A stretch of 64,000 bases of DNA from a virus, in the IMG/VR virus record IMGVR_UViG_3300037235_000042, positions 1 to 64,000 of that record; one strand, 5' to 3'. Below the pieces are notes generated by a model, which saw only the letters and a program-made list of their open reading frames with translations, was not told where the DNA came from and made no database searches. How positions within the stretch are numbered: position 1 is the first letter of the stretch; every line of letters starts with the position of its first letter. Position numbers and translations under genes: made by a program. Shown here piece after piece: positions 3,736 through 33,390 of the stretch.

Positions 3736-5142
3736 ATGCCCGAACTTAACGATCTCGACGGCTCGTTCATCGATCAGGAGATTGATCTCGGGGAAGAGGT
3801 TGAGGTTCGGGAGCCGTACTGCGAGTTTCTAACCGGGTCCAGCGGTTCGGGAAAGACGTTCGAGATCAAGCGTCGGGTAGAACTCGATCATTCCTACGGC
3901 ACGGTTGGTAGTACGACCGGCGTGAGCGCCGTGAACCTAAACACCCGGACGATCCATTCCATCCTAGGCTACTTCAACACTGCATCTCTAGAAGATAACT
4001 TCCGCATGGGCTATCTTCAAGCCCGGTTGCGTAAACTCGCAATGGAAGACGGCTATCGCAACATAGTGATCGACGAAGTGAGCATGCTTCCTTCGGCTCA
4101 GCTGACGGTCATCTACGAAGCGGTCAAAGAAGTTAACGCTTACAAAACGATGCAGGCTGAAGGTCGCCAGTTGGGCATTGTACTAACCGGGGACTTCATG
4201 CAGCTCCCGGCTGTTTCAGAAGACGGTTCTAAGACCTGTGACTACGCGTTCCTTTCCCAGTATTGGCCAAGCTTCCAAGCCAACACAACGAGGTTAACTA
4301 AAATCTGGCGACAGGATAACTTGGAATTCGTAAACGCCCTTAACCTGCTTCGAGCCGGTAAAGGGGCTGAAGCTGCAGATCTCCTACGAACGATGACTCG
4401 GTTCCAGCCCAATGTCGATCCTAGATTCGATGGGACGACTATTCTGTCGACCAACAAAGAAGTCGAACGAGCGAACACTCTTCGTTTGATTCAAGTAAAA
4501 GGCCGTCCAGTAGTGGTCAGTTCCCGGCGCTGGGGGAAGCCTTCAGGGGAATGGAAGCTTATTCCGGACCAGCTTCAATTGAAGATCGGCGCTTTGGTTA
4601 TGATCTTGGCGAATGCTCGTTCTGGCGCAACCGGGCAGTTCGAGTATGTCAATGGCGATCTTGGGCATATTGTGGACTTCACCGGGGATGATGTCAACCG
4701 TCAGACTTTTCAGGTGAAGCTTCTACGGAACGAACGGATCGTCAACATTGGCAAGATTCACCGAACCACGACGACCAAGGACGAACCTGAAGAAGTCCGC
4801 TTAGGTAAGATCAGGGTTGAGGATATCCCAACCTGTGCGCCACCGGTTGAGCCTCCACCGTTCGGGCAGATATCACTTGAGCTGGAACGAGGCACGTATC
4901 ATGTAGGCGGGATCGAATATTTTCCACTGAGGATAGGGTTCGCCGCTACCGTGTTCAAGGTTCAAGGATTAACCTTGGATAAAGTTCAGATCGACTATCG
5001 TGGGGCGTGGTTTGGCCATCCTGGATCTCTGTACGTAGCACTTTCTAGGTGTAAGACTCCAGAAGGATTAAGGTTGGTTGGTTTGCCAGATGTGTTTGTG
5101 AAACGATGTAAGACCGATCCACAGGTGTTGCCGTGGCTATGA
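3736..5142 (+). CDS. Pif1/RecD-family SF1B DNA helicase
   Basis: GSSGSGKT, IVIDEVSML, GDFMQLPAV, LTKIWRQ, FPLRIGFAATVFKVQGLTLD, YVALSR. Confidence 0.92.
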   Translation: MPELNDLDGSFIDQEIDLGEEVEVREPYCEFLTGSSGSGKTFEIKRRVELDHSYGTVGSTTGVSAVNLNTRTIHSILGYFNTASLEDNFRMGYLQARLRKLAMEDGYRNIVIDEVSMLPSAQLTVIYEAVKEVNAYKTMQAEGRQLGIVLTGDFMQLPAVSEDGSKTCDYAFLSQYWPSFQANTTRLTKIWRQDNLEFVNALNLLRAGKGAEAADLLRTMTRFQPNVDPRFDGTTILSTNKEVERANTLRLIQVKGRPVVVSSRRWGKPSGEWKLIPDQLQLKIGALVMILANARSGATGQFEYVNGDLGHIVDFTGDDVNRQTFQVKLLRNERIVNIGKIHRTTTTKDEPEEVRLGKIRVEDIPTCAPPVEPPPFGQISLELERGTYHVGGIEYFPLRIGFAATVFKVQGLTLDKVQIDYRGAWFGHPGSLYVALSRCKTPEGLRLVGLPDVFVKRCKTDPQVLPWL

Positions 5143-9076: not shown

Positions 9077-12000
9077 ATGACCCTTTTACCAAAACCTTCC
9101 GAATGCCAGTCCTGTGACCTCTACGGCTCCGGGATGGGCTTTTCCAAGCCCGACGGTACGGGAAGTCTTGGGCTCATGGTGATGGCAGAAGCCTTAGGCG
9201 AGGAAGAAGAGAGAGACGGCAAGCCCTTACGCCCGTACGCTCAAAGTGGGGCGATGTTCGAACGGCTGCTCAAAATGTGCCGGTTGTCCCGCGATCAGTT
9301 AGTTATCTATAACACTGTTAATTGCCGTCCTCCGAAGAATTGGTTAGAGAAGGCTCCATGGGAGTTCAGCGCGATCTCCCACTGCCAAGTCCACCGGCAA
9401 CGCGTGATCGACCAGTTCAAGCCTCGGGTCATTCTAGCTCTCGGCAACGTCGCCACTCGGACCCTTACCGGAATGGCCGGGGAGAAACAAGGGGTGATGT
9501 ATTTACGCGGATATGTGCTCCCGGCTCTCCAGGGCCACAGGACGAATAAAAAACCCTGCCCAGACTGTCTGGATCAGGTTAAAAAGGGATGCTTCCTGTG
9601 CGACGGGACCGGCTGGATCGATGAGCAATCGCCCATTTATAGCCAGATCTACGTCGTTCCCACGGTCCATCCTAGTTTCATTCAGCGGGGCAAGAAGAAC
9701 TTCATCCCCGTCGCCACTTACGACATTCAGTTAGCACTCAGAACTTCAGACCTGATCCTCCGTGGTCAGAAGCCAACGAGGAAGTCGGTTCAATACATAA
9801 CTAGGGCGACCCTCGACGAAGCTCGGTCGTTCTATCTCAAGGTTAAAGACAGCCCGAACGTTCTGGTCACCTATGATATCGAGACCCCGAACTCCGCTAC
9901 CGAGGACGAAGATAAACGGGGCTCGATCATGGAAGACGAAGAAGATGAAGACGCTCCAGCGAAGAAATATCCCGAGGACTACTCCCTCTCAGCAGAAGAG
10001 TACGTTATAACCCAGATCCAGTTCTCTATCGCCCCGCAGACCGGGATCGTGTTTCCGTGGGAAGGCGAGTTCATCAAGATTGCCAAACTTATACTAGCCC
10101 TGCCCAACCTGAAAGCTGGCTGGAATTGCTTCGCTAAGAATACGTCTGTACAGATGGCTGACCGTAGTTGGAAACCAATTTGGCAAGTACAGATTGGAGA
10201 CTGGTTATCGTCTGTGAATAGTCAAGGCAAGATTTGTGGCCGTCAGGTTACACGGACGTTTCATGCCCAAGATAGTCGGCCTTGGATACGTGTGCAGGTA
10301 GACGGTGCCTACAATCGGGGAACGGGTAGATGGGGATGTCCTGGTGTTGTTTGTACCTTAGATCATGAATGGTTTTTATCAGATGGTTCTAAACGTATGG
10401 CCTACGCTTTACGTCCGGGAGATAGAGTTATACTACCTTCCCGAGGGTCCGAAGATCTGGTTCATGGGACGTTGCTAGGAGATGGCCACGCCAATCGCAA
10501 CAATTCCTGTCGTTTGCGTTTCTCGCAAACTAATCGGGCTTGGGCTCAGGCGAAGGCAGATAACTTCGGAGGGACAGCCAAACCAGCTAAAATCAGTCGA
10601 GGAGGATATCCTAATAGGAGCACTCCTTGGTGGGCAGAGACAACTATTCCTTCCTACTGGAGAAGGATATTCTATAACGGCAAACAGAAGTTGTGGATAG
10701 CTCCCCCTTCCATGAAGGCTCTAGCAGTTCTTTATGGTGATGATGGTTGGATCAATAAGGGTAAGACAGCTTCTTTCGCGCTGCATTCCTTCAAGCCTCA
10801 ACTAGAAGAAATAAAGGCATGGTTCACAGAACAGTTTGGTTCTTGTGCTATTTTTCGTGAAGGTGAATTACGACTCCATGTAGGAAGCAGTCGAAAGTTT
10901 TTTGAGTCCATTGCGTGTTTCTTGCACCCAAGCGTTCAATACAAGCTTCCGGTCGAATTCCAAGGTCGCTATAACAATTGGCTCAAGGAACAAGTTCCTC
11001 AAATTGGAGTTGTGTTAGGTACCGAACCCGTTCGGCCTAGAAAGAAAGAAACTAATCATAAATACTGCCTAGAGGTTGACGACACTCATCGTTTCTTTAC
11101 TCGGGCGGGTCTGGTTTCGAACTGCTGGGATTTTGACGATCCCCGGTTGCGGTCGAACGGTTGCGTTATAAATGGGCCATCGGAAGATCTGATGTGGAAG
11201 TGGCATCACCTGCAACCGGATCTACCAGCCGGACTGCAGTTCGCCTGTTCATTCTTGGGGATGGACTATCCCTGGAAGCATCTAGCGACGATGGGGGATA
11301 TGGGACAGTACGGGTGTGCGGATGTCGATGCTCCGCAGAGGGCTTATCCACTGTTAACCTCTGCGCTGAAGGCCAAGAGGATCGAACGGGGATACGAGAG
11401 ACATATCCGCCGGCTCGCGCCGATCCTGTGGGCAGCAGCGGATCGCGGAATTCCTGTCAACCGGGAGAAGTTGAAGAGTTTTGAGGACAAGATCACCCTC
11501 GCTCAACAGGAACTAGCCGACCAGAAGATCAAACCTAAAGTCCAAGGAATGGACCTCGGCAACGTCGAGCCCAAGGGAGGCTTCAAGCCTACTAACACGG
11601 GGAAGGTTCGCTCGGAAGAGTTGATGTCGCTAATCAACTCCGGCAAAACCTTCGATGAGATCTCGCAGATAGTCCACCGGAATAAAGAAGGCGATTCCTA
11701 CCGTTACCTCCAGAAAGAGTTCGTCGAACCGCAGAAGGTTGATCTGTTCGAGGGGAATTTAGTGTCAGACCCGGTCGCGGCTCCGGTCGTTAGATGGTGT
11801 CGGCAGTTCGACTTCAATCCTGGTTCGGCCAAGCAGATCATGGCCTATATGGCCGCGAAGAAGCATCCCATCCCGACCGCGTGGAAGACGGACAAGCCGA
11901 CTACGGCCAAGGAGGAATTAGAAAGGCTGGCGAAGAAGGTTAAGGATTCGTTCTACACGGATATTCTGGAATATAGAAAATTCGACAAGATGATCTCTAC

Positions 12001-14065
12001 CTATTGTGTAGGATGGCGACCGAAAGAAGACGGTTGCGTTCATACGACGTGGACGTTCCGGCCAGCCATAGGCCAAACCTCTACTACAAATCCGAATATT
12101 CAGAATTGTTTTTCGGACGACACAGAAATTCTGACTAAGCGTGGTTGGGTAATGTTTCCTGACTTATTGGAAACTGACTTGTGTGCTCAATGGACCTATG
12201 GTGGAACTGTCATATTCGGATCTCCGGAACGGGTAATAAGACAGTCCTACAATGGACTATTGCACTATATAACGACTGAAGAACAAATAGATATTGCAGC
12301 AACACCTAAGCATAACTGTTTGTTACAGGATCGTAAGACTAGTCGATTCTTCAGCGTCCCTGCCATAGACTTCAAGGCTGATGCTCGGCAGATTCAAGCT
12401 GGGATATACGTAGGAGGTAACGCTCATTATATTGAGGCCCAAATTGCGCTTATCTGTGCCCTTCAAGCTGATGGTTACGTAATGCCCAAGGTAATCGACA
12501 AGAAGGGCCGATCTCGGGGCTCTGGGGGAGCATACGATTTCTTTTTTGCTAAGGAACGTAAGATTGCTAGATTCGAACGTTGTTTGAATGAACTCAATAT
12601 TCCTTATAGGAAGGTTCAACGCTTCGTTAATACTACTCCCAGAAATCGCCTTCCAGGCATGCGTTTCTATATCGCTCGGAAGGACGTCCCAAGCTGGTGG
12701 CAGGATAAGAAATATTTTGGGCCGTGGATACTTGACTTAACTCGCGAATCTTTGGACTATTTGGCGGAAGAAATTTGGTTCTGGGATGGTTGTTCAGAAC
12801 GTCGAAGTATGTACTCATCTAGTGTTAAATCCAATGCGGATTGGGGCCAGATCATTACTATCCTGTCTAACCGTCGAGCCAAAGTTAGAGTGTACGCAGG
12901 CGAAGGAAATCGCAATGATAACTGGCAAGTTGACGCTAGTCTACATTCCTATTCTCTAACGACTAACTTGAAGAATGAAGCTAGACCCTACAATGGCATG
13001 GTCTACTGCGTAACTATGCCTTCTGGGACCATCATAGTAAGACGTAATGGAAAAGTTGCATTTACTGGAAACTGTCCAACGCATGTCGGCTTGGCTGAGG
13101 AATTCCGCGATTGTATCGAGGCTCCTGCTGGTCATCATATAGTCGAACTGGATTACAAATCGTTCTTCGTCATCACTATGGGGTTTGAGGCGAAAGACGA
13201 ACAGTGGATCCGGATGGGAAGGATGGATATTCATTCCTATCTGGGAGCCTACGCGTTACATCTGCCAGAACGGGACCGGTTGATCTCGATGCCAGATGAT
13301 GAACTACGCGACCGGCTGAGCTGGATCAAGAAGAACTACCAACACGAACGGGATTATAAGTGGAAGCGTGCGGTGCTCGGATATAACAACGGTCTAGGCT
13401 ATCGTAAACTCTACCATCAGCATCAGGAATATTTCTCAGGAGAGAACGAAGCTAAACAACTCCTGCAGACTCTAGACGCACAATTCCCTATCGCCTGTGC
13501 CTGGAGAGAAGAAGTTATCCACCGTGCGCAACGGGATTACAGATTGGTCTCCCGACATGGCTATCACAGATTATTCCATGACGTTCTGGTCTACTGGGGC
13601 CAGGGAAAGATTGAAGACGCTGTTCGCCGAGGAAGGAAAATTCCTCCCGTCTGCAAGATCTGCAAACAACGTCATGAGAACGGAGAAGAAGCTGAACAGG
13701 CTAAGGCGTATTTAGCGGCTAACAACGCGTTCGGTCATATCAAAGACGCTATTATTCGCGCCAGCGATCAGGACGAAGGCCCATGGGATAAGGAACGCTA
13801 TATGGCCTCGTGGCTGGGCCGAGCCGGGTTCTGCAACACCATTCACGACTCTATAGTCTGTATCATGCCTGATTCGTTGATCGATCAGGCTCTCCCGGCG
13901 ATCTATAACGAAATGGTCAAGCCTTCTACTATCTTGGTTAACGAGGTCGCGCCGGATGGGCTGGTATGCGATGTTGAAGCCAAGATCGGTAAGACTTGGA
14001 AGAAGAAAGGGCTAGGGTCGATGGAGACCATTTCCATCCACACCGGCATGAGCGTTACCGTATGA
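9077..14065 (+). CDS. polA: family-4 uracil-DNA glycosylase :: 3'-5' exonuclease :: family A DNA polymerase, with two inteins
   Basis: UDG: CQSC.L, AEALGEEE, NTVNCRPPKN, HPSF; ExoI YDIET, ExoII GWN/CWDFD, ExoIII YGCAD; Pol: FNPGS.KQ, PNIQN, motif A ELDY, motif B K....LG, motif C IHDS. Confidence 0.93.
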   Translation: MTLLPKPSECQSCDLYGSGMGFSKPDGTGSLGLMVMAEALGEEEERDGKPLRPYAQSGAMFERLLKMCRLSRDQLVIYNTVNCRPPKNWLEKAPWEFSAISHCQVHRQRVIDQFKPRVILALGNVATRTLTGMAGEKQGVMYLRGYVLPALQGHRTNKKPCPDCLDQVKKGCFLCDGTGWIDEQSPIYSQIYVVPTVHPSFIQRGKKNFIPVATYDIQLALRTSDLILRGQKPTRKSVQYITRATLDEARSFYLKVKDSPNVLVTYDIETPNSATEDEDKRGSIMEDEEDEDAPAKKYPEDYSLSAEEYVITQIQFSIAPQTGIVFPWEGEFIKIAKLILALPNLKAGWNCFAKNTSVQMADRSWKPIWQVQIGDWLSSVNSQGKICGRQVTRTFHAQDSRPWIRVQVDGAYNRGTGRWGCPGVVCTLDHEWFLSDGSKRMAYALRPGDRVILPSRGSEDLVHGTLLGDGHANRNNSCRLRFSQTNRAWAQAKADNFGGTAKPAKISRGGYPNRSTPWWAETTIPSYWRRIFYNGKQKLWIAPPSMKALAVLYGDDGWINKGKTASFALHSFKPQLEEIKAWFTEQFGSCAIFREGELRLHVGSSRKFFESIACFLHPSVQYKLPVEFQGRYNNWLKEQVPQIGVVLGTEPVRPRKKETNHKYCLEVDDTHRFFTRAGLVSNCWDFDDPRLRSNGCVINGPSEDLMWKWHHLQPDLPAGLQFACSFLGMDYPWKHLATMGDMGQYGCADVDAPQRAYPLLTSALKAKRIERGYERHIRRLAPILWAAADRGIPVNREKLKSFEDKITLAQQELADQKIKPKVQGMDLGNVEPKGGFKPTNTGKVRSEELMSLINSGKTFDEISQIVHRNKEGDSYRYLQKEFVEPQKVDLFEGNLVSDPVAAPVVRWCRQFDFNPGSAKQIMAYMAAKKHPIPTAWKTDKPTTAKEELERLAKKVKDSFYTDILEYRKFDKMISTYCVGWRPKEDGCVHTTWTFRPAIGQTSTTNPNIQNCFSDDTEILTKRGWVMFPDLLETDLCAQWTYGGTVIFGSPERVIRQSYNGLLHYITTEEQIDIAATPKHNCLLQDRKTSRFFSVPAIDFKADARQIQAGIYVGGNAHYIEAQIALICALQADGYVMPKVIDKKGRSRGSGGAYDFFFAKERKIARFERCLNELNIPYRKVQRFVNTTPRNRLPGMRFYIARKDVPSWWQDKKYFGPWILDLTRESLDYLAEEIWFWDGCSERRSMYSSSVKSNADWGQIITILSNRRAKVRVYAGEGNRNDNWQVDASLHSYSLTTNLKNEARPYNGMVYCVTMPSGTIIVRRNGKVAFTGNCPTHVGLAEEFRDCIEAPAGHHIVELDYKSFFVITMGFEAKDEQWIRMGRMDIHSYLGAYALHLPERDRLISMPDDELRDRLSWIKKNYQHERDYKWKRAVLGYNNGLGYRKLYHQHQEYFSGENEAKQLLQTLDAQFPIACAWREEVIHRAQRDYRLVSRHGYHRLFHDVLVYWGQGKIEDAVRRGRKIPPVCKICKQRHENGEEAEQAKAYLAANNAFGHIKDAIIRASDQDEGPWDKERYMASWLGRAGFCNTIHDSIVCIMPDSLIDQALPAIYNEMVKPSTILVNEVAPDGLVCDVEAKIGKTWKKKGLGSMETISIHTGMSVTV
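10127..11122 (+). mobile_element. intein 1 (332 aa) with LAGLIDADG-type endonuclease, in the ExoII motif
   Basis: N|CFAKNT.V.MAD start, TLDH block B, GTLLGDG and LYGDDG, YCLEV..THRFF..GLVSN|C end. Confidence 0.9.
12107..13072 (+). mobile_element. intein 2 (322 aa) with probable LAGLIDADG endonuclease, after PNIQN
   Basis: QN|CFSDDTEILTKRGW start, TPKH, ALQADG, WFWDG, YNGMVYCVTMPSGTIIVRRNGK..TGN|C end. Confidence 0.9.
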
Positions 14066-24400: not shown

Positions 24401-25245
24401 ACCACGGTGCCGTTCGGTGGGCTAACCGGCAAAGTGGCGAAGGTGACAGCGGATCCGGGAAGGATCAACCCGTCCGAACCACCGAAGGTGAAGAACCCTG
24501 GATTGGTGCTAGTGTCTAGTTGAGGATTGCTGTTCGTCAAGGTCGTCCCGCTGGCGGCTTGGGGGAAGACTCCAGTGCTCAGCCCGGTGATCGGCTGAGG
24601 CGTACAGGTCCAGTTGGTCCCGTTCCACGAGGGGAGACTGGGCGTCGGACAGCCTTGAGGGAGTTGATAAGCGCTCAGAATAGCTAGAGTTCCACTGCCG
24701 GTTATGGTCCCGCCCGATAATCCGGTTCCGCCAGTAATACTGGTAACCGCCGGACAGCTGACTTCTTCAACGCCGCCGGAAGGATTAGTCCATGTGCAAC
24801 CGTTGGCGTTGGTGAAGTTCAGCGTAGGTTGCGTAGCGTTAGGTGTGCTATTGGTTTGGATAGAAATATTGCCAGTGGCGTTCTGTGCAGTGACAAAATA
24901 GGAATAGACAACGTTATTCGTAACAGTGATCTGAACTATGTAATTTCCCGGAGAGACAAAGAAGCTGTAATTTGCGTATTGGTCTGTAGTATAAGGGTTG
25001 GACGCAGCTTGGGTTAACCCAGCATCTAGGTACAAGGATGCCAATGGGGAACAGGGAGTTCCAGCTCCACCAGTGTAGGAACATACCCGAACGCTAGCGA
25101 AAGCTGCAGGCCCACCTGAACCGACTGGAGGTGGTGGTTGGATCACTTGACCGCTGATTGCTCCGGATTGGCCGAACGCTGCTGAGGACACCAGTAGTAG
25201 CAACAGGATCAGCTGGATCTTTGAGCTTTGACGCAGAGCGAGCAT
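21403..25245 (-). CDS. large fibre/spike-like protein with signal peptide, lectin-like and beta-helix regions
   Basis: 1280 aa, G/T/S/N- and Cys-rich; tailspike-type N-terminal head (SLYLDAGLTQAASNPYTTDQYANYSFF); LLLLLVSSAAFG/Q. Confidence 0.7.
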   Translation of the reverse strand: MLALRQSSKIQLILLLLLVSSAAFGQSGAISGQVIQPPPPVGSGGPAAFASVRVCSYTGGAGTPCSPLASLYLDAGLTQAASNPYTTDQYANYSFFVSPGNYIVQITVTNNVVYSYFVTAQNATGNISIQTNSTPNATQPTLNFTNANGCTWTNPSGGVEEVSCPAVTSITGGTGLSGGTITGSGTLAILSAYQLPQGCPTPSLPSWNGTNWTCTPQPITGLSTGVFPQAASGTTLTNSNPQLDTSTNPGFFTFGGSDGLILPGSAVTFATLPVSPPNGTVVQCLDCNPSCTASTNTTPGFLVPQAVTGQDCGYYNGMWGGLINGSGGTGGGGSSSKTFPNIDDATSTWGICYIGMCSGGSPGGNVAPASHIFSEISTTPPCADGSCIEFSETSISTGSGNQTNILATYKTHDSQAQSAAIVAQSFTVSVYNPGNWGNASALEFDQFIFVSAPPGQTCSTYTCTEFMFGSQCNGGFWDIFQQGTAGVGGAWITTPVTCALLNNTPGWHTITENVHRIAGDTNGCTNPVNHNAYPCEYYDSITVDGINTLFNTGPTSAGGLPSGWGSDTGFQFQIDIAGNSKTVTEYLDSASYTEYTALNTVSGLPTASASGQVPAANGPGTTYFAQSKQAFDVRDCTVALCGTLPVATADFAAALATLQSNLGSGTIIDARNPGAFASTGGTYCPGGGAFQQCVFSNSDISAGLGQGFQSVILWGNYWIITSAPWTTTVGAHQWIGVTSGASKGPIGTALIVCYAPQNSGLTCGPAGFPQFPTTATRSVGGPFLDGSPYTTGTISVASGNNPTVTGVGTTWTSAMVGGYLTSCATSSSHGATCPNATNACSALITAVNSTTSLTVSGNWGSEGNNPGVVCPTGVAGLTYALYHPTAIPILSWAGGVSNDAYQNNSFGSQLQDFFIDPEGMPLAIGLLLNGAQERDGFHRIHVAMNSGNFNNGGIIGCTPPGTGSNCTSEVATASIMAGMMTDRTFNYTGEAGPAHYSTGTMDITTGPSYIASSSGVLPYPFAFEGYDILRGNIGDSGNTAFNQGTVTGKNLSLLETFYDCGWYDGFLRIEIDNAHCEFTERGLDLGQTNGGNGYVVRNVSTANQGGATNVAPVHFYSGVTGSMADNISVIGNSQKILQDDSPGGQTITAAGSGCPAAGCTVVHYEQSGAFNGTPGLWQVGGIQSTGSQFTASGCTNGTLVGGAANGSFKTGVSGACTVVITIGGANPITANNGWHCDGADETTAAGNGIYQSAHSTTTGSLTLPAGNVSGDVISFSCEAY

Positions 25246-25478
25246 ATGATCGGATTCTCTTCCCCTTCCCGGAAGACCTTGTCGCGGAACCTACATTCCC
25301 CAATAACCAAATCCCTCCCGCACGGACAGCTCCCCTTCTGCTTCCGGTACTGCTCCATCAACCGTTCGTTCTTCGCCGTCCACCCAGCCGGGCTGTGCAG
25401 AAAAGTTTCCTGGCCAAATCTCCTTTTCGTCTCGCGAATCTTCTTGGGCGGAGTGAACCTGACGCGATGAGCCCTCAC
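25209..25478 (-). CDS. small basic Cys-containing protein
   Basis: CPC..CSLC; upstream of the fibre gene. Confidence 0.4.
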   Translation of the reverse strand: MRAHRVRFTPPKKIRETKRRFGQETFLHSPAGWTAKNERLMEQYRKQKGSCPCGRDLVIGECRFRDKVFREGEENPIICSLCVKAQRSS

Positions 25479-25662
25479 GAGTGGAAGTTTAGCGAATGGA
25501 ACAGATGGAAGACAGGAGGAATGAAAAATTATGTTGACTTCTTGGTCAGGAATATGACAGGATACAAAACGTCACCGACCAGTAGACCGTACGAAGCGGC
25601 GAGGGGAGGGGAGGTTTTCCAGCCGTCACCCTGGAAGACCTCCCCCGGCGAGTTCAAGTTAA

Positions 25663-25761
25663 ATGATCAATTTTACGAAATCCTCGACTTCCGTTCTATC
25701 AAGCTTAAGTTCAAGCTTGCGACTCAGTCCGTTGTCCTCGCGACTGAGTTATTTATCCTAA
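25663..25761 (+). CDS. leader peptide A (32 aa, Ser/Leu/Tyr-rich) before the Leu/Ser/Tyr tRNA array
   Basis: MINFTKSSTSVLSSLSSSLRLSPLSSRLSYLS*: 13 Ser, 7 Leu, 1 Tyr; ends 9 nt before tRNA-Leu. Confidence 0.75.
   Translation: MINFTKSSTSVLSSLSSSLRLSPLSSRLSYLS
25721..25756 (+). terminator. terminator-like hairpin inside leader A
   Basis: GACTCAGTC / GACTGAGTT stem followed by ATTTAT (weak U tract). Confidence 0.5.
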
Positions 25762-25770
25762 GCACAATTT

Positions 25771-25855
25771 AGGCCCGTGGGCTAATAGGGAATGGCAGAC
25801 CTTTCAGGCTCAAAATCTGAGACCCTTGAGAGTTCAAGTCTCTCCGGGCCTACCA
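25771..25855 (+). tRNA. tRNA-Leu(CAA), short variable arm, enlarged D region
   Basis: AGGCCCG/CGGGCCT-A-CCA; TCAGG CT CAA AA TCTGA; GAGAG TTCAAGT CTCTC. Confidence 0.8.
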
Positions 25856-26095: not shown

Positions 26096-26584
26096 ATGCC
26101 CATGGCTACACTTGAACTGCAGAGAGCCTATATGGCGGAGTGGTACTTGAGGAAGATCAAGCCCCGTCGCGAGAAATGGATAAAGGAAAATGGTCCTTGT
26201 CGTTGCTGTGGGTCATGGAAGAATTTGGAGGTTGATCACAAAGATCCATCCCAAAAAGTTCATCATCGTGTATGGTCATGGTCTGAATTACGAAGACAGG
26301 AAGAATTAAAAAAGTGTCAGGTTCTTTGTCACGACTGTCATCTTAGAAAGACTGTAGTAGATTTACAAGAGATGGATATCAATGCAGATAAACGCAGAAT
26401 CTGTCCTCCCGGAACGGCTTGGTGCTATCGAGGTAAACATTTCGTAGAAGTCCGGTGGTTCAGCAGTGATGCTGCCAAACACGATGGTTTACAGGACGAA
26501 TGTAGAATATGTCGAAGTAAACGAAGAAGTCCAAATGGTAAGCTCGGGCGTGTTGAGATGTTGGGAATCTCAAGCTGGCCGTAA
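26096..26584 (+). CDS. HNH endonuclease inserted in the tRNA array
   Basis: CRCCGS..NLEVDHKDP..K...ELKKCQVLCHDCH. Confidence 0.88.
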   Translation: MPMATLELQRAYMAEWYLRKIKPRREKWIKENGPCRCCGSWKNLEVDHKDPSQKVHHRVWSWSELRRQEELKKCQVLCHDCHLRKTVVDLQEMDINADKRRICPPGTAWCYRGKHFVEVRWFSSDAAKHDGLQDECRICRSKRRSPNGKLGRVEMLGISSWP

Positions 26585-27604: not shown

Positions 27605-29119
27605 CTAGGCAACTACGGCCTCTTCGACTGTTTCCACCTTGGTTTTGAACACGTCGTTGAGGGTCAGCAAAGGAAATTCCATAATTTCCTCTAGCAACCC
27701 ATATCGTTGAACTCTCATGGTGGAGACGATATTTGGAAGAGAGTAAAAGTCGACTCCCCCTCTTAAATCGAACTCCTGCAAGTCGATCTCCGCTCGTTTC
27801 ATCGACTGGGCTAGGTCGATGTCGCCTATTCCATGCATCGATGGAGCCAGACGATAGAGATAAACAGGAACTTCTTTACCCAGAGTTGTGCAGTACCGCT
27901 TATACGTGTCTGCGAACCTCGGGGCAGTGTTCTCCTGTGCGTCTGACACGATAGCGATCCCGTCGGCCTCGACGCTTCGGTCGATTGCGTATTGAACGCC
28001 ACAACCAATCGAAGTTCCTGCTCCGTCGGCTGTAATCCATTTCGTGTCTGACTTGATCTCGTCATAGCTCTTTCCAGTAACGTCGAACACGCGTGAAGCA
28101 ACAGAGTCGAAGAAGACCAAAGTGATTTTGTTCTTCACCATCTTCCCTAGTGTTCCTGCTACCAGTCGAGCCGTTTCGATAGCGTTCGACATGGAAGGAG
28201 ATTTGTCTGCCAAGATCAGCCAGTTTCCCTCAATCCCTGCAGCACGTTTGAGTTGTTTCTCCTGCAAGTTCTGGAGCTTCCCCTTCAACCCTTCATCCGA
28301 GATCTGTTCCGCTGCTCGGGTAGTCTTCAGCACGTTCTTGGTCGACTTCGACGCCTTTTCAAGCGCTTCCTCGAACACGCCCCGCAGCGCCGGGTTCGTC
28401 TTGACCCCCAGGCGTTCGAGCATTTTCACATTCGTTACCAACTGCGAAGGCGTCATCTTTTTGATCAACGCCAGCACGAGGTCAGGATCGTTGATCTTCT
28501 TCCCCAACGCGCCCTGAGCGGCCATGAACGGGATGTTGTGCTCAAGGATCGCTCCAGCGGCTTCAAGCGCTGACATATTGATCAACTGAGCAACGATCTC
28601 TCTTTTCGAACCTTCCGGGTGGGCCATCTTCCCGTTGTGTTGGTAGAACAGGATATCCCCTACCCGGTCGGAACGCTTGCAGTGTCCCAAAGCGTAGAGA
28701 TTGGCAAAGGTCTTCCGGTCCTGCGTGACCATTGAGTCCCATTTCTGTGGAACGGCTTCGATCTTCTTCAGATAAGCTTCGATCAACCGGCGCAGGGTAC
28801 GCATTCTTCCGGCTGGACGAAGTTCCAGCGCGAACCGGTAGGCTCGCTCCAGTTCCCGAGGGCCGAGCAGCGCGATATGAGCTAGGGAATTGTCGATGAA
28901 TTCGTCTGGGTAGTTCTTGGCCTTCAGCGACACGACTGGTAACGCCACCTTGGCGTCACGGATCTGGCCTTTCAGCCGGTCCCAAGCTACGAGATGTGCA
29001 AAGAATTCAGGTTCCTGTTCAGCCGCCTTTAGGCCGATGGGAACGTATTCCTGAAGCTTCCCGTGAGGAGACTTCGACAATTCACTTAAAATAGTGTTCT
29101 TGGTAAGTCCTGTTTCCAT
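27605..29119 (-). CDS. TROVE-like helical + vWA domain protein (Ro60/Rsr-like RNA-binding protein)
   Basis: 504 aa, helical N-terminus (EQEPEFFAHL..W...GQIRD), C-terminal vWA with MIDAS LILADKSPSM, GTSIG, IVSDAQEN; YrlA-type RNA upstream. Confidence 0.75.
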   Translation of the reverse strand: METGLTKNTILSELSKSPHGKLQEYVPIGLKAAEQEPEFFAHLVAWDRLKGQIRDAKVALPVVSLKAKNYPDEFIDNSLAHIALLGPRELERAYRFALELRPAGRMRTLRRLIEAYLKKIEAVPQKWDSMVTQDRKTFANLYALGHCKRSDRVGDILFYQHNGKMAHPEGSKREIVAQLINMSALEAAGAILEHNIPFMAAQGALGKKINDPDLVLALIKKMTPSQLVTNVKMLERLGVKTNPALRGVFEEALEKASKSTKNVLKTTRAAEQISDEGLKGKLQNLQEKQLKRAAGIEGNWLILADKSPSMSNAIETARLVAGTLGKMVKNKITLVFFDSVASRVFDVTGKSYDEIKSDTKWITADGAGTSIGCGVQYAIDRSVEADGIAIVSDAQENTAPRFADTYKRYCTTLGKEVPVYLYRLAPSMHGIGDIDLAQSMKRAEIDLQEFDLRGGVDFYSLPNIVSTMRVQRYGLLEEIMEFPLLTLNDVFKTKVETVEEAVVA

Positions 29120-29131
29120 TCTTAACCTCTT

Positions 29132-29188
29132 CCCCGAACGTAAGATTGGCCCGACTAATTCTCTTAATCGGGCCTGTGTACGTCGAAA
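29132..29188 (-). promoter_or_regulatory. 5'-leader hairpin of the TROVE gene carrying the Y-module, overlapping the RBS
   Basis: ACGTA-CACA-GGCCCGATT...AGTCGGGCC-AATCT-TACGT, then GGGGAAGAGG and ATG 29119. Confidence 0.65.
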
Positions 29189-29194
29189 CTTTCA

Positions 29195-29267
29195 TCACTG
29201 GTGGGGTATTGAGTGCCCACATCTCCGATAGCTTGCGCTACCCGGCGTAATCCTTATACGACAGTGA
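29195..29267 (-). ncRNA. tRNA-like element with the anticodon arm replaced by a GCAA-capped hairpin, no CCA
   Basis: TCACTG/CAGTGA stem, D-like GTA..TAC, CCGGGTAGC GCAA GCTATCGG, GTGGG..CCCAC T-like arm. Confidence 0.55.
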
Positions 29268-29274
29268 AGATTTA

Positions 29275-29399
29275 CGGCGTTGGATCGTTTCAGCTATTTT
29301 ACGCGCTCTACCGCTGAGCTACGGTTCTTGCGAACCGGTTGGATTCGAACCAACGACCTCGGTCGCCAAGTGACATGTAAGCTGGAACCGTAAACGCCG
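29275..29399 (-). ncRNA. YrlA-type Y RNA (circularly permuted tRNA mimic)
   Basis: Ends pair (CGGCGTT/AACGCCG); order T arm (GTTGG TTCGAAT CCAAC), acceptor stem closed by GCAA (CGGTTC/GAACCG), D arm (GCTC AGCGGTA GAGC). Confidence 0.85.
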
Positions 29400-29404
29400 A
29401 TCTT

Positions 29405-29529
29405 TGGTGGGGAGTGTTGGATTCGAACCAACATGAGCAGTCTTGAAGGACTGTTGCATGAATCCAGTTTCAGTATGCGATGTGACTCGCAGGATCGCTA
29501 CTGGCGCTTTTCCATTTTGCTAACTCCCC
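29405..29529 (-). ncRNA. CCA-ended tRNA/Y-RNA hybrid (Y-module in the anticodon position)
   Basis: GGGGAGT/ACTCCCC-A-CCA, D arm, T arm GTTGG TTCGAAT CCAAC; insert CCAGTAGC GATCC TGCGA..TCGCA TACT GAAACTGG. Confidence 0.7.
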
Positions 29530-29534
29530 AAACT

Positions 29535-29631
29535 TGGTGGAGGGCTCCGGGTATTAGCCGGAGAAGCATGTAATCTCGCAATGTATGCGCTTTAAAGGCG
29601 CAGGATCGAACGTGATTTTGCAGAGCCCCCC
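29535..29631 (-). ncRNA. CCA-ended D-armless tRNA/Y-RNA hybrid
   Basis: GGGGGGC/GCCCTCC-A-CCA, TCCGG CTAATAC CCGGA; insert GATCC TGCGC CTTTAAA GCGCA TACA...TACATG. Confidence 0.65.
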
Positions 29632-29639
29632 GTAAAATC

Positions 29640-29767
29640 CCCATCGCAGGATCGCTTGAGCTAAGGTCTTGCGACCTCAAGGTTGGAATCGAACCAACAA
29701 CTTTCTGATTACTAGTCAGATGCTCTACCAATTGAGCTACGTGTAAGCCCGAGCCGTGTGCGATAGG
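29640..29767 (-). ncRNA. Y-RNA/tRNA-Thr(AGT) hybrid (Y-module replaces the acceptor stem)
   Basis: CCTATCGCA CACG GCTCGGGCT...AGCTCAAGC GATCC TGCGATGGG enclosing D arm, TCTGA CT AGT AA TCAGA, T arm and a GCAA hairpin; no CCA. Confidence 0.75.
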
Positions 29768-29773
29768 AATATT

Positions 29774-29850: not shown

Positions 29851-29925
29851 TGGTCGGGGATGCTGATTCTGCCACAGCGACCCCTCGGTCCCAAGCCGAG
29901 TGCTCTGCTTCTGAGCTAATCCCCG
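29851..29925 (-). tRNA. tRNA-Pro(TGG)
   Basis: CGGGGAT/ATCCCCG-A-CCA; CTCGG CT TGG GA CCGAG; atypical T loop. Confidence 0.85.
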
Positions 29926-29930
29926 AAATT

Positions 29931-30005
29931 TGGTGCGGACTGGAGCGCTCGCATCTCCGTCTGAAGGGCTTCAACCTTCCGCTACTCTGTCTCAGCTAAG
30001 TCCGC
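29931..30005 (-). tRNA. tRNA-Phe(GAA)
   Basis: GCGGACT/AGTCCGC-A-CCA; GAAGG TT GAA GC CCTTC. Confidence 0.82.
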
Positions 30006-30011
30006 AAAAGT

Positions 30012-30087
30012 TGGTGGACCCTGTCGGCTTCGCTCCGACCGCCTCCGGTTTGCAGGACCGGCGCTCTCCTGAATGAGCTAAGAGCCC
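30012..30087 (-). tRNA. tRNA-Ala(TGC)
   Basis: GGGCTCT/AGGGTCC-A-CCA with G3:U70; CCGGT CC TGC AA ACCGG. Confidence 0.88.
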
Positions 30088-30095
30088 ACATAAAA

Positions 30096-30170
30096 TGGGG
30101 TGGCTGACGGACTCTGCCTCCGTATGATCGGGGCCACAACCCGACGCCTTTCTAGTTCGGCCACAGCCAC
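30096..30170 (-). tRNA. tRNA-His(GTG)
   Basis: GTGGCTG/CAGCCAC-C-CCA; TCGGG TT GTG GC CCCGA. Confidence 0.86.
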
Positions 30171-30173
30171 AAT

Positions 30174-30247
30174 TGGAGCAGGCGTTCGGTGTTTGACCGA
30201 AGTCTTACGGGTACAAGCCGTAGGCTCTATCGTTGAGCTACACCTGC
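30174..30247 (-). tRNA. tRNA-Thr(TGT)
   Basis: GCAGGTG/CGCCTGC-T-CCA; TACGG CT TGT AC CCGTA. Confidence 0.85.
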
Positions 30248-30254
30248 AAACTTA

Positions 30255-30328
30255 TGGAGCCGAGGCCGGTAGTCGAAACCGGATCGTATGCTTACCAAGC
30301 ATATGCTCTGCCGTTGAGCTACCAAGGC
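30255..30328 (-). tRNA. tRNA-Thr(GGT)
   Basis: GCCTTGG/CCTCGGC-T-CCA; TATGC TT GGT AA GCATA. Confidence 0.86.
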
Positions 30329-30330
30329 TC

Positions 30331-30405
30331 TGGAGCTAGCGTTCCGACGTGCGCGGAATTCTGCTGGTTACGAATCAGCGGCTCTACTATATGAGCTACG
30401 CTAGC
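30331..30405 (-). tRNA. tRNA-Thr(CGT)
   Basis: GCTAGCG/CGCTAGC-T-CCA; GCTGA TT CGT AA CCAGC. Confidence 0.83.
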
Positions 30406-30410
30406 AAAAC

Positions 30411-30487
30411 TGGAGTACTGGGTAGGACTGTAACCTACTAAGAAAGGCTTTGCAGGCCTCCGCTTCGACATCTTCAGCATCCAGTAC
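30411..30487 (-). tRNA. tRNA-Cys(GCA)
   Basis: GTACTGG/CCAGTAC-T-CCA (U73); GAGGC CT GCA AA GCCTT. Confidence 0.85.
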
Positions 30488-30495
30488 ATCAAAAA

Positions 30496-30569
30496 TGGAG
30501 CGAGTGGGGATACTCGAAATCCCATCTCTGGTTTGGAAGACCAGGGCCTTACCTTTAGACGACACTCGC
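30496..30569 (-). tRNA. tRNA-Gly(TCC)
   Basis: GCGAGTG/CACTCGC-T-CCA; CTGGT CT TCC AA ACCAG. Confidence 0.9.
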
Positions 30570-30570
30570 A

Positions 30571-30647
30571 TGGCGAGAACGACAGGATTCGAACCTGCTT
30601 GTCGGTGGTTTGGAATCACCTGCCCTTCCAATCGGGTCATCGTTCTC
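30571..30647 (-). tRNA. tRNA-Trp(CCA)
   Basis: GAGAACG/CGTTCTC-G-CCA; GGTGA TT CCA AA CCACC; TTCGAAT. Confidence 0.87.
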
Positions 30648-30648
30648 A

Positions 30649-30726
30649 TGGCGGGCTAGACGGAACTCGCATCCGCTTTACTCCTCCGTGACGGGGAGGC
30701 GGCTCGACTCCTTCGCCCTCTAGCCC
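30649..30726 (-). tRNA. tRNA-Asp(GTC)
   Basis: GGGCTAG/CTAGCCC-G-CCA; CCTCC CC GTC AC GGAGG. Confidence 0.85.
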
Positions 30727-30727
30727 A

Positions 30728-30803
30728 TGGCAAGCTCCCAGCGATTCGAACGCTGATTGACAGATTCAGAATCTGTAGTCCTAGCCAATTGGACGAGGAG
30801 CCT
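30728..30803 (-). tRNA. tRNA-Gln(CTG)
   Basis: AGGCTCC/GGAGCTT-G-CCA; ACAGA TT CTG AA TCTGT. Confidence 0.9.
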
Positions 30804-30809
30804 AGTTAA

Positions 30810-30882
30810 TGGCACCGGCGCTGGGAATCGAGCCCAGACCGCAAGCTTCAAAGGCTTACTACGGCACCAGCCGCACGCCGGA
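30810..30882 (-). tRNA. tRNA-Gln(TTG)
   Basis: TCCGGCG/CGCCGGT-G-CCA; TAAGC CT TTG AA GCTTG. Confidence 0.82.
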
Positions 30883-31065
30883 TCAAATTTTCAATGAAAT
30901 CGCCCTTATACACCGGGCGCAAACCACCGCCGACTGATCGACGTCTTTTTCCTTCCGCATCCGGTCGACCCGAGCTTCCCGGACCAGCTGACGATGATCA
31001 CCACCGCGTTCGCAGTAATTGATATCGCCGGGCTCGATGGTCGTGTTGAACAGTTTGTGCTTCAT
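30883..31065 (-). CDS. small Cys/His protein inside the tRNA array
   Basis: MKHKLF...CERGGDH...CARC fills the gap between tRNA-Glu and tRNA-Gln. Confidence 0.5.
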   Translation of the reverse strand: MKHKLFNTTIEPGDINYCERGGDHRQLVREARVDRMRKEKDVDQSAVVCARCIRAISLKI

Positions 31066-31075
31066 TCTTGATCTC

Positions 31076-31152
31076 TGGTGCCGCATGTCGGAGTCCCACC
31101 GACTTTATCCTCCTTGAAAGAGAGGCCGCTCCAGTCCTTTGCGCTATGCGGC
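31076..31152 (-). tRNA. tRNA-Glu(TTC)
   Basis: GCCGCAT/ATGCGGC-A-CCA; CCTCT CT TTC AA GGAGG. Confidence 0.82.
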
Positions 31153-31154
31153 AA

Positions 31155-31229
31155 TGGTAGCGGATGACGGTTACGATCCGTCTTTTTTCGGATGAGAACC
31201 GAATGGCCTAGCCAGTAGCCGAATCCGCC
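31155..31229 (-). tRNA. tRNA-Glu(CTC)
   Basis: GGCGGAT/ATCCGCT-A-CCA; TTCGG TT CTC AT CCGAA. Confidence 0.82.
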
Positions 31230-31247: not shown

Positions 31248-31595
31248 TTATCGAACCACCAAAAACGGAATCGTCACCAGCTGTTTCTCCTTGGTGACCA
31301 TGTCCGTCGCCGAGAACACCAGATTAACCTGCTTCCCGGCTGAGGTTGGCCCGGTCGGCGTCCCCGTTACCACAGCAGATCGAGGATCCTCGGCGACCAA
31401 GGCTAGTCCGGCAGGCATCGGGTCGCTGGTTGAATCCAGATCCCAGCAGATCTGATGCAGGGGCTTATCCAAGGTGTGCAGCCCCGTGTACAAGTAAGCG
31501 GTGAATGGACGGTTGATCCTGGAGATCAGCGCCGGAAAGGGTTGGGCTAATCCTGGTATCTCCTGATCGTTCAAATCCGTAGCGATGTCGGGCAT
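31248..31595 (-). CDS. putative Ig (He_PIG-like) domain protein
   Basis: W.L....MPAGLAL......VVTGTPT...F.ATD; AAGGA RBS. Confidence 0.65.
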   Translation of the reverse strand: MPDIATDLNDQEIPGLAQPFPALISRINRPFTAYLYTGLHTLDKPLHQICWDLDSTSDPMPAGLALVAEDPRSAVVTGTPTGPTSAGKQVNLVFSATDMVTKEKQLVTIPFLVVR

Positions 31596-31631
31596 AGAAT
31601 TCCTTTCAAGTTGGATTAAGTAGATCAGATT

Positions 31632-31664
31632 AAAAAAGCCTTCTAGTTTTTAAGTAGAAGGCTT
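31632..31664 (-). terminator. intrinsic terminator (attenuator C)
   Basis: AAGCCTTCTA-9 nt-TAGAAGGCTTTTTT. Confidence 0.85.
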
Positions 31665-31692
31665 GCCGTTTAAACCCGTCAAATCCTTCCAA

Positions 31693-31794
31693 CTACCCAC
31701 AACCTTCGCCCTGAAACCACGCTTGGTGTAGTCCAAACGGAGTCTTGGTCACAGTCGGGGTCGTAGGTTGATCGGAATGGATTGGTGTTCTCAT
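31693..31794 (-). CDS. leader peptide C (33 aa) before the 15-tRNA array
   Basis: MRTPIHSDQPTTPTVTKTPFGLHQAWFQGEGCG*; lies between a promoter and a terminator; contains all 11 amino acids of the downstream array. Confidence 0.8.
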   Translation of the reverse strand: MRTPIHSDQPTTPTVTKTPFGLHQAWFQGEGCG

Positions 31795-31817
31795 GTTCTG
31801 GTAACTCAACAGGAAGA

Positions 31818-31846
31818 ACTCTACTATTCGGACGAAAACTTGTCAA
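31818..31846 (-). promoter_or_regulatory. sigma70-type promoter for leader C/array C
   Basis: TTGACA-17-TAGAGT. Confidence 0.75.
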
Positions 31847-31940
31847 CAGGAAAATTAAGAGAATTCCTTAACCGGGTAAGGTATCGACGGTATTGTTCCT
31901 TCTTCCGGTTCCACGCAAGCTGATAAGCGGAGGAATTCTT

Positions 31941-32120
31941 ATGCCCTGTTCACAGCAGGATCGCTTCTCAGCATCGGCGGATAAACTTCAAGGGGAACTG
32001 GAATCGCTGGATAACCGGTTGCAACAGTTGCAGAATATGGAAGAGATATTGGAGAAGGTGGAAGGATCACCGATACTGACGAGGACGGAGAGAAGGATGG
32101 AGTTTAACCGAGCGGCTTAG
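31941..32120 (+). CDS. small coiled-coil protein
   Basis: GGAGG RBS before ATG 31941. Confidence 0.55.
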   Translation: MPCSQQDRFSASADKLQGELESLDNRLQQLQNMEEILEKVEGSPILTRTERRMEFNRAA

Positions 32121-32125
32121 AAGAC

Positions 32126-32202
32126 TGGTAGGCCAGGTCGGACTCGAACCGACAACCTCTAGATTCGGAATCTAGCGCGATTTCCTTTTTCGCTTCTGGC
32201 CT
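32126..32202 (-). tRNA. tRNA-Arg(CCG)
   Basis: AGGCCAG/CTGGCCT-A-CCA; CTAGA TT CCG AA TCTAG. Confidence 0.88.
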
Positions 32203-32943: not shown

Positions 32944-33126
32944 TTATTGCACCCCCAGTTTATACGACGCCTTCTTGTTCTTCCGTTGACGTTTTTTACC
33001 TTTTTTAAACTTGGCCTTCGCGTAACGGACTTGTGGCGGATATTTTTTGAACACTCGTTCACGATGCGCCTTGCGTTCCGCCGCCTTGCGGAGCTTGGTC
33101 GCTAGTTTCTGTCCTGTTGTACGCAT
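32944..33126 (-). CDS. small Lys/Arg-rich protein inside tRNA array B
   Basis: GAGGTG RBS; about 24 of 60 residues are K/R. Confidence 0.55.
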   Translation of the reverse strand: MRTTGQKLATKLRKAAERKAHRERVFKKYPPQVRYAKAKFKKGKKRQRKNKKASYKLGVQ

Positions 33127-33174: not shown

Positions 33175-33251
33175 TGGCGACACCGGGAGGACTCCAACCT
33201 CCACCCTTCCGCTTAACAGGCGGCTGCTCGGCGCATCTCAGCTTCGGTGCC
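33175..33251 (-). tRNA. tRNA-Asn(GTT)
   Basis: GGCACCG/CGGTGTC-G-CCA; GCCGC CT GTT AA GCGGA. Confidence 0.85.
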
Positions 33252-33318: not shown

Positions 33319-33390
33319 TCAGGTCCCCAAACGCATATTGCGCTTCACTTTAATGACGCGCCTAGCTGAGTTGGGGTTGATCAATCTCAT
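33319..33390 (-). CDS. leader peptide B (23 aa) before the Asn/Met/Val/Ile/Lys/Arg array
   Basis: MRLINPNSARRVIKVKRNMRLGT*; core RRVIKVKRNMR consists only of array amino acids; ends in TGGGGACCT, identical to the terminator 3' arm. Confidence 0.82.
   Translation of the reverse strand: MRLINPNSARRVIKVKRNMRLGT

Follow-up and report, generated by a model that had tools for sequence, protein, structure and literature searches.

A viral genome from soil carries, ahead of a long array of transfer RNA (tRNA) genes, a short unit that is probably a ribosome-mediated leader-peptide attenuator, whose stall-dependent switch between three RNA pairings (regions 1:2, 2:3 and 3:4) would gate a 115-amino-acid open reading frame (ORF) together with the array. 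The window, which is the whole stretch of DNA that was analysed, comprises positions 1 to 64,000 of the IMG/VR virus record IMGVR_UViG_3300037235_000042 and is the first 64 kb of a 98,271-bp record that has direct terminal repeats and is rated complete. The phage occurs in soil metagenomes. The unit lies at positions 31632-31846 on the minus strand, and its small ORF is here called leader C after the array that follows it (array C). The broader statement, namely that leader C is translated and that its translation is coupled to the array, is held with more assurance and is likely correct.

The tRNAs of the phage form three arrays. Array A (plus strand) carries three tRNAs for Leu, two for Ser and one for Tyr, and array B (minus strand) carries those for Asn, Met, Val and Ile, two for Lys and four for Arg. 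Array C (29851-31229, minus strand) consists of 14 tRNAs, with two each for Glu, Gln and Thr and one each for Asp, Trp, Gly, Cys, His, Ala, Phe and Pro. The amino-acid sets of the three arrays are disjoint and jointly include all 20 amino acids. ARAGORN called 23 tRNAs in the phage and more were obtained from Rfam and relaxed ARAGORN; the array tRNAs were confirmed with Rfam, with both threshold settings of ARAGORN (normal and relaxed) and through direct reading of anticodon loops. Seven tRNAs that were missed at the ARAGORN defaults (Glu-UUC, Asp, Cys, His, Ala, Pro and Asn; 29851-30728 and 33175-33251, minus strand) were recovered by Rfam and/or the relaxed settings. The original prediction, made from the letters of the window, had counted 15 tRNAs in array C, three of them for Thr. 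The 11 amino acids, 14 bona fide tRNAs and two ordinary Thr tRNAs of that count stand, and the remaining member is a tRNA-like Y-RNA module. This tRNA-Thr(AGT)-like element (29653-29748, minus strand) lacks a normal acceptor stem, is detected by ARAGORN at the relaxed threshold only, matches the Rfam tRNA model in part (model positions 7-64) and is embedded in a Y-RNA-type stem.

The leader C unit, all of it on the minus strand, has a compact anatomy. A consensus scan found a -35 hexamer TTGACA (31841-31846) and a -10 hexamer TAGAGT (31818-31823), which agree with the consensus at 10 of 12 positions across a 17-nucleotide (nt) spacer and rank among the two best sites in 25-35 kb; transcription is predicted to start at about 31810. 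The ORF (31693-31794) begins with an ATG at 31794, about 16 nt downstream of the predicted start, and runs for 33 codons to a TAG at 31695-31693. Its codons include all four for Thr, both for Gln, both for His and all four for Gly, and codons 10-19 form a Thr/Pro-rich stretch located on the 5' strand of a long imperfect hairpin. This hairpin (regions 1:2; 31682-31783) bears most of the ORF, extends over about 100 nt with a folding energy of -46.4 kcal/mol and has 22 near-perfect base pairs at its base. Its stability is exceptional when compared with shuffles (z = -5.3) and is equalled in only 0.27% of the 105-nt segments of the genome. One nucleotide past the stop codon starts a 12-nt antiterminator segment, region 2b (31680-31691), and 28 nt past the stop codon begins an intrinsic terminator (regions 3:4; 31632-31664) with a 10-bp stem, a 9-nt loop, a run of six U residues and an energy of -11.8 kcal/mol. 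The 5' arm of the terminator occupies 31664-31655, the 3' arm 31645-31636 and the U run 31637-31632; the consensus scan had passed over this terminator because its loop limit was 8 nt. Region 2b and the terminator's 3' arm are identical at 8 of 10 positions, so that region 2b pairs with the 5' arm; this 2:3 pairing is worth -11.5 kcal/mol as a duplex and -13.2 kcal/mol as a hairpin. When numbered along the transcript from 31810, the AUG stands at 17-19, the stop codon at 116-118, the hairpin at about 28-129, region 2b at 120-131 and the terminator arms at 147-156 and 166-175.

The terminator is placed between the only recognisable promoter and the operon, and no further promoter-like site was found between the two, where the distance from the U run to the start of the 115-amino-acid ORF is 36 nt. 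Most of this arrangement had been read correctly in the original prediction, including the TTGACA-17-TAGAGT promoter, the 33-residue leader with all 11 amino acids of the array, the presence of all four Thr and both Gln codons (the array has two Gln tRNAs), the U6 terminator, and the pairing of segment 31680-31691 with the 5' arm of that terminator. It has to be corrected on some further points. The array is not directly behind the terminator, as an ORF of 115 codons (31595-31248, minus strand) with a good Shine-Dalgarno sequence intervenes as the first gene, the first tRNA starting at 31229; and the prediction had mentioned neither the long 1:2 hairpin nor the lack of a Shine-Dalgarno sequence at the leader.

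The match between leader C and the tRNAs of its array is not a product of chance. Of the 32 residues after Met1, 26 are among the 11 amino acids for which array C has tRNAs, against a mean of 50% in stop-free windows of the genome (P = 9e-4), and all 11 amino acids are found together in 0.7% of these null windows. When 998 ATG-initiated ORFs of 15-60 amino acids were ranked blindly across the genome for the array C set, leader C came second, the first-ranked ORF being the nested tail of a real gene. The set of array C is partly closed under codon complementarity, such that a hairpin could inflate the count, and shuffles preserving both structure and composition were therefore used, in which base pairs and unpaired bases are permuted while structure and composition stay fixed. 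The probability of 26 or more in-set residues in such shuffles is 6e-5, and in simple base shuffles of the ORF the match has P < 5e-5. The enrichment is also frame-specific, as reading this DNA in any of its other five frames gives 12-18 in-set residues among 33-34. At the level of anticodons, 13 of the 14 in array C have a cognate codon in leader C (P = 3e-3), the only one missing being Glu-CUC, for which the codon is GAG.

Similar leaders precede the other two arrays of the phage. Leader B (33319-33390, minus strand) is a near-leaderless ORF, in which 15 of 22 residues fall within the six amino acids of array B (P = 8e-4; rank 2 of 998) and 9 of the 10 anticodons are sampled. It is followed by a terminator at 33285-33260 (minus strand), and its last codons together with the stop codon hold an exact 8-nt copy of the 3' arm of that terminator. 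The resulting stop-overlapping antiterminator forms 9 bp with the terminator 5' arm (-15.4 kcal/mol; P = 0.0012), and the minimum-energy fold of leader B is the antiterminated one except when a ribosome occupies the last part of the ORF. Leader A (25663-25761, plus strand) stands ahead of the Leu/Ser/Tyr array and consists of Leu, Ser or Tyr at 21 of 31 residues (P = 1.4e-5; rank 1 of 998; 6 of 6 anticodons sampled). Its geometry differs, the hairpin lying inside the ORF, and no promoter-like site was found near it. When the three leaders are tabulated against the three arrays, the diagonal of the 3x3 table is enriched and every off-diagonal combination is depleted. For leader A there is a rival reading as a real overlapping gene: a long ORF in another frame (25158-25772, plus strand) overlaps it and ends 7 nt before a tRNA-Leu gene, and the last ~100 residues of this ORF are protein-like. 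Within array B, a 60-amino-acid Lys/Arg-rich ORF (32944-33126, minus strand) lies between tRNA-Asn and tRNA-Met; it has 28 of 59 residues in the array B set, ranks fifth genome-wide and is partly covered by an RNA-library contig. It may encode a small basic protein or serve as a second leader.

The same design is found in unrelated viral contigs. A pattern of three tandem T-loops retrieved 119 IMG/VR loci, from which 114 arrays were tested, an array being at least three ARAGORN tRNAs on one strand that cover 2-12 amino acids. Candidate leaders were first-ATG ORFs of 12-60 amino acids within 350 nt upstream, and a binomial P was computed from the base composition of each ORF itself. At P < 0.01, a match was seen for 12 of 224 upstream ORFs in the sense orientation, compared with 1 of 139 antisense ORFs and 39 of 4433 with the amino-acid sets exchanged among arrays (Fisher, 3.4e-6). 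A hairpin with a U run, that is a terminator, stands between ORF and first tRNA in 10 of the 12 matched cases, and in nine of these ten the distance from stop codon to terminator is 24-29 nt, a range into which the 28 nt at leader C falls. A stop-proximal segment complementary to the terminator 5' arm is likewise enriched (5 of 10 at P < 0.05; combined P = 6e-5). In the best case, locus L110 (9077-9190, plus strand; P = 2e-10), a leader rich in Ala, Glu and Phe precedes an Ala/Glu/Phe array. The L068 leader (1200-1265; here and for L121, positions on the locus's reverse complement) holds Ile(ATA), Pro, Trp and Tyr codons before a Trp-Ile(UAU)-Tyr-Pro array, and every Ile codon in it is ATA, which is read by the array's own tRNA-Ile(UAU). 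The L121 leader (4276-4374) is made of Arg, Ser, Tyr and Trp before a Trp/Ser/Tyr/Arg array. All three show a clear order of promoter or Shine-Dalgarno, leader, terminator and tRNAs. Leader C shares with the viral-contig examples the matched mini-ORF, the terminator, the stop-proximal antiterminator and the spacing from stop codon to terminator; it departs from their layout, in which the array stands directly behind the terminator, by having the 115-amino-acid ORF before the first tRNA. The phage's own leaders also lack a Shine-Dalgarno sequence (leader B is leaderless), and at 98 kb the phage is of middle size and not a giant.

In two further loci, L116 and L132, arrays of similar content, Cys/Leu/Asn/Arg/Thr(/Val), are preceded by leaders that are related to each other yet have diverged. 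They are a possible case of leader composition tracking array content.

Logan contigs from soil sequencing runs provide RNA-library and strain data, of which X3 and X4 are metatranscriptomes and X5 is a DNA run; the shares in X6-X10 are small. A 396-nt contig of X3, which is identical to 31406-31800, spans the leader and the terminator and enters the 115-amino-acid ORF, and it begins 10 nt inside the predicted transcript. The stretch 31829-32152 is covered by no RNA contig and is continuous in a DNA run; neither depth nor uncovered stretches of Logan contigs are evidence of expression level. Contigs in both X3 and X4 link the 115-amino-acid ORF to the tRNA-Glu genes. These contigs fit a start at the predicted promoter, some read-through of the terminator, and co-transcription of the ORF with the array.

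The X5 strain is about 98% identical and has only two changes in the 215-nt unit, at 31751 and 31749. Both are non-synonymous: Glu (GAG) replaces Val at codon 15 and Ala replaces Thr at codon 16, and both new residues belong to the array C set; the GAG so gained is the sole anticodon-cognate codon absent from the reference leader. The pair strengthens the hairpin (-65.2 against -62.3 kcal/mol) and keeps the frame and the composition. These changes agree with a constraint on composition over sequence, although two sites amount to an anecdote. They also bear on the idea that the unit, with a promoter and a terminator to itself, is an independent gene for a small protein, a 33-residue peptide that is functional in itself. 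Such a gene would account for the promoter, the ATG and the terminator, yet both strain substitutions alter the peptide, as against three of four changes at third codon positions in the neighbouring 59-amino-acid gene of the plus strand. It would further have no Shine-Dalgarno sequence, would leave the downstream operon without a promoter of its own and would leave the match to the array unexplained, and we consider it very improbable.

Another explanation is a non-coding unit. In that case, the transcript would be a structured leader or small RNA of ~180 nt with a stabilising or RNase III-type hairpin and a leaky terminator, giving constitutive partial read-through, and the ORF and its composition would be accidental. 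The exceptional hairpin covers nearly the whole ORF, its stability is increased by the two adjacent strain substitutions, and the terminator is kept in all equilibrium folds. The absence of a Shine-Dalgarno sequence would also be expected. An open frame alone is not significant here, as 27% of the structure-preserving shuffles are open and ORFs are present in all three minus-strand frames. What the explanation does not provide is the frame-specific composition, which is improbable at the same structure and composition, nor its recurrence at the two other arrays of the phage and in unrelated phages. Likewise, the stop codon falls exactly at the antiterminator segment, with a terminator spacing typical of the other examples. 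No known RNA family comes to its aid, since the Rfam search of 31590-31870 returned nothing relevant to leader C at E values up to 10, and the T-box was not matched. On this balance a non-coding leader is unlikely. The hairpin was also considered as another Y RNA/YrlA module of the neighbouring Ro60-like operon, and this was rejected, as its 3' strand has no GATCC and it has no Rfam YrlA match.

The switch itself was approached by folding. Constrained folding had been proposed in the original prediction as a check: masked folds of the nascent RNA give the alternation of 2:3 with 3:4, while equilibrium folds always keep the terminator. In the nascent folds, the RNA was taken up to region 3 and the ribosome was represented by a crude masked footprint. 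With no ribosome, 1:2 forms and region 3 is free; with a ribosome stalled at codons 11-16, in the Thr-rich stretch, the 2:3 antiterminator forms; and a ribosome that has reached the stop codon covers region 2b and abolishes 2:3. Within this model the three states are those of the trp system.

The coupling of a translated ORF to the array could also take other routes than a 2:3 versus 3:4 switch. Translation could open the hairpin for processing or stability, or could shield the transcript from Rho, or read-through could simply vary with the distance at which the ribosome trails RNA polymerase. The composition match argues for translation, and such routes would sit well with the modest significance of the 2:3 pairing, with the different geometry of leader A, where the hairpin is within the ORF, and with the many sampled codons at which a stall is not predicted to free region 2. 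Against them speaks that leaders B and C both carry a stop-proximal copy of a terminator arm, that this feature and its spacing are enriched in the unrelated examples, and that the masked-footprint folds reproduce the three classic states. Coupling by such other means is, in our estimate, improbable.

The attenuator would then work as follows. Transcription would start at about 31810 from a sigma-70-type promoter, and the leader ORF would sample codons read by 13 of the 14 array tRNAs. If the leader is left untranslated, the 1:2 hairpin would form, region 3 would stay free and the 3:4 terminator would stop transcription. If a fast ribosome reaches the stop codon, it would cover region 2b and the terminator would again form. 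If a ribosome finds no charged cognate tRNA and halts early in the ORF, it would hold region 1 open, region 2b could pair with the emerging 5' arm of the terminator, and RNA polymerase would read through into the ORF and the tRNA genes. The new tRNAs would relieve the stall, giving a negative feedback. The phage would thereby probably make the array tRNAs only when ribosomes run short of them.

A wider proposal is put forward tentatively, at rather less than an even chance. It holds that three demand-switched tRNA operons split the whole genetic code among them, that their leaders are OR gates which sense the depletion of tRNAs and not amino-acid starvation, and that the design is widespread among phages with tRNA arrays. 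Each leader has about one codon for nearly every tRNA species of its array (6 of 6, 9 of 10 and 13 of 14 anticodons), and a ribosome would then stall, and the array open, once any one of these tRNAs was lost. A nuclease of the host that cuts anticodons, or decay of host tRNA induced by the phage, could cause such a loss.

Several observations weigh against an attenuator of this kind. No Shine-Dalgarno sequence is present at leader C, where the anti-Shine-Dalgarno pairing of -2.2 kcal/mol is at background level, compared with a median of -5.5 kcal/mol for the genes of the phage. The 5' untranslated region is about 16 nt long and the AUG lies about 10 nt ahead of a -46 kcal/mol hairpin; short-leader or leaderless initiation is possible. 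In leader C, seven of the 11 amino acids appear just once or twice, and classic attenuators use runs of codons. The antiterminator is predicted only for stalls at about codons 11-16 and about codon 30, and stalls at codons 18-26 let the lower stem of 1:2 re-form. Equilibrium folding of the full-length RNA retains the terminator whichever ribosome position is masked, and therefore any switch has to be kinetic. The 2:3 pairing by itself is weak when allowed anywhere upstream (P = 0.16) and becomes moderately unusual when it is required at the stop codon (P = 0.017). The first gene under control would be a protein gene and not a tRNA. Transcript ends, levels and regulation are beyond what the RNA-library contigs can show, and these contigs could stem from carried-over DNA. 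Finally, the two X5 changes fit a constraint on RNA structure equally well. The attenuator nevertheless agrees with every computational test that was run and is to that extent supported; from these tests we infer translation, stalling and regulated read-through.

The 115-amino-acid protein that would be first under control has no Pfam or PHROGs match. It is predicted to be all-beta at low confidence, and its AlphaFold model has a predicted local distance difference test (pLDDT) score of 49. A single homologue of the ORF, at 80% identity, is found on contigs of up to 42 kb. Protein-pattern scans for relatives found none in viral, metagenome or genome contigs apart from L002, a weak viral match over 34 residues on a stretch without tRNAs, which was set aside. 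No viral relatives of the Ro60-like protein were found, neither the terminator nor the Glu-Glu tRNA junction had a match elsewhere when searched as exact DNA patterns, and a search of a phage collection gave matches to single tRNAs only. For the large terminase (TerL), the best relatives reach no more than 38% identity and come from short contigs.

Most proteins of the phage are without a family match. The recognisable ones include a Dda-like helicase, a DNA polymerase, a primase, a portal protein, a large terminase, tail fibres and a TROVE/vWA (Ro60-like) protein. Array C continues directly into the Ro60-like/Y-RNA block, which occupies 27605-29119 and 29119-29770 on the minus strand. Upstream of the Ro60-like gene is a YrlA-like RNA (29271-29400; Rfam 42.5 bits, below the gathering score), and several tRNA-like RNAs also precede this gene and have in common a stem with a GATCC internal loop. 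Several tRNAs of the phage have atypical T loops. Within array C, a 193-nt spacer between tRNA-Glu(UUC) and tRNA-Gln(UUG) (30883-31075, minus strand) folds at -60.7 kcal/mol and is assigned to no tRNA or Rfam family. Array A contains an HNH homing endonuclease gene between its Ser and Tyr tRNAs (26096-26584, plus strand; PHROG E = 9e-25). The DNA polymerase ORF (9077-14065, plus strand; 1662 amino acids) includes a LAGLIDADG homing-endonuclease segment at residues of about 458-625, which is probably an intein. Between array B and the promoter of leader C stands the 59-amino-acid ORF mentioned above (31941-32120, plus strand), which encodes a coiled coil, runs convergently to array B and has a strong GGAGG ribosome binding site; this ORF is probably a real gene because three of its four X5 changes fall on third codon positions.

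Leader-peptide attenuators are well known from amino-acid operons, for example trpL, hisL, leuL and pheL, and the thrL and ilvGMEDA leaders of enterobacteria are multivalent. Leader C resembles them in its promoter-proximal short ORF enriched in product-linked codons, in the 1:2 hairpin, in a 2:3 pairing that excludes 3:4, and in a stop codon so placed that a terminating ribosome would cover region 2; with the ilv and thr leaders it would share multivalent sensing. Unlike them, it would control tRNA genes and a small protein gene rather than biosynthetic enzymes, and it samples 11 amino acids and 13 anticodons mostly once, whereas theirs are runs of one to three amino acids. It further differs in lacking a Shine-Dalgarno sequence, in a far longer 1:2 hairpin (about 100 nt) and in having no sequence or Rfam relationship to them. 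The attenuator of the E. coli pheST operon, with its pheM leader, controls an aminoacyl-tRNA synthetase, senses Phe alone and is cellular. Leader C would likewise apply leader-peptide attenuation to the decoding machinery instead of amino-acid synthesis, but it is viral, concerns multiple amino acids and precedes tRNA genes. T-box riboswitches likewise attenuate transcription in response to the state of tRNA. They bind one uncharged tRNA directly and without translation, in contrast to leader C, which would work through translation.

Among published systems the nearest is cellular, the cryptic trn operon of Anabaena sp. PCC 7120, whose accessory tRNA genes stay silent as long as translation is unimpaired (PMC8421152). 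It resides on a megaplasmid and is controlled by the repressor TrcR (PMC10272220). The proposed mechanism would make array C comparable, silent by default and opened when translation is impaired. The control in Anabaena is by a protein repressor, and a leader peptide, an attenuator or a terminator is mentioned in neither paper (PMC8421152, PMC10272220). In the literature searched, no leader peptide or attenuator was found for phage tRNAs or for any tRNA array or tRNA operon. Promoters, leaders and terminators go unmentioned in the papers that treat phage tRNAs as counter-defence and in those on mycobacterial tRNA array units. By analogy, therefore, the mechanism would be classic amino-acid attenuation, closest to that of ilv, thr and pheST, acting on a new kind of gene through a leader that samples many tRNAs once each.

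The reason why phages carry tRNA genes has been debated for some 50 years, with codon compensation and escape from tRNA-targeting host defences as the main proposals (PMC10264068, PMC11555353). If the attenuator is real, trp-type attenuation would be extended from amino-acid and synthetase genes to tRNA genes, in a multivalent form with about one codon per tRNA. The present phage offers a compact case of it, with three leaders, three arrays and all 20 amino acids without overlap in 98 kb. An array that opens only when its own codons are decoded slowly would make phage tRNAs a conditional reserve, and the question of what they are for would become testable as that of which stress opens each switch.

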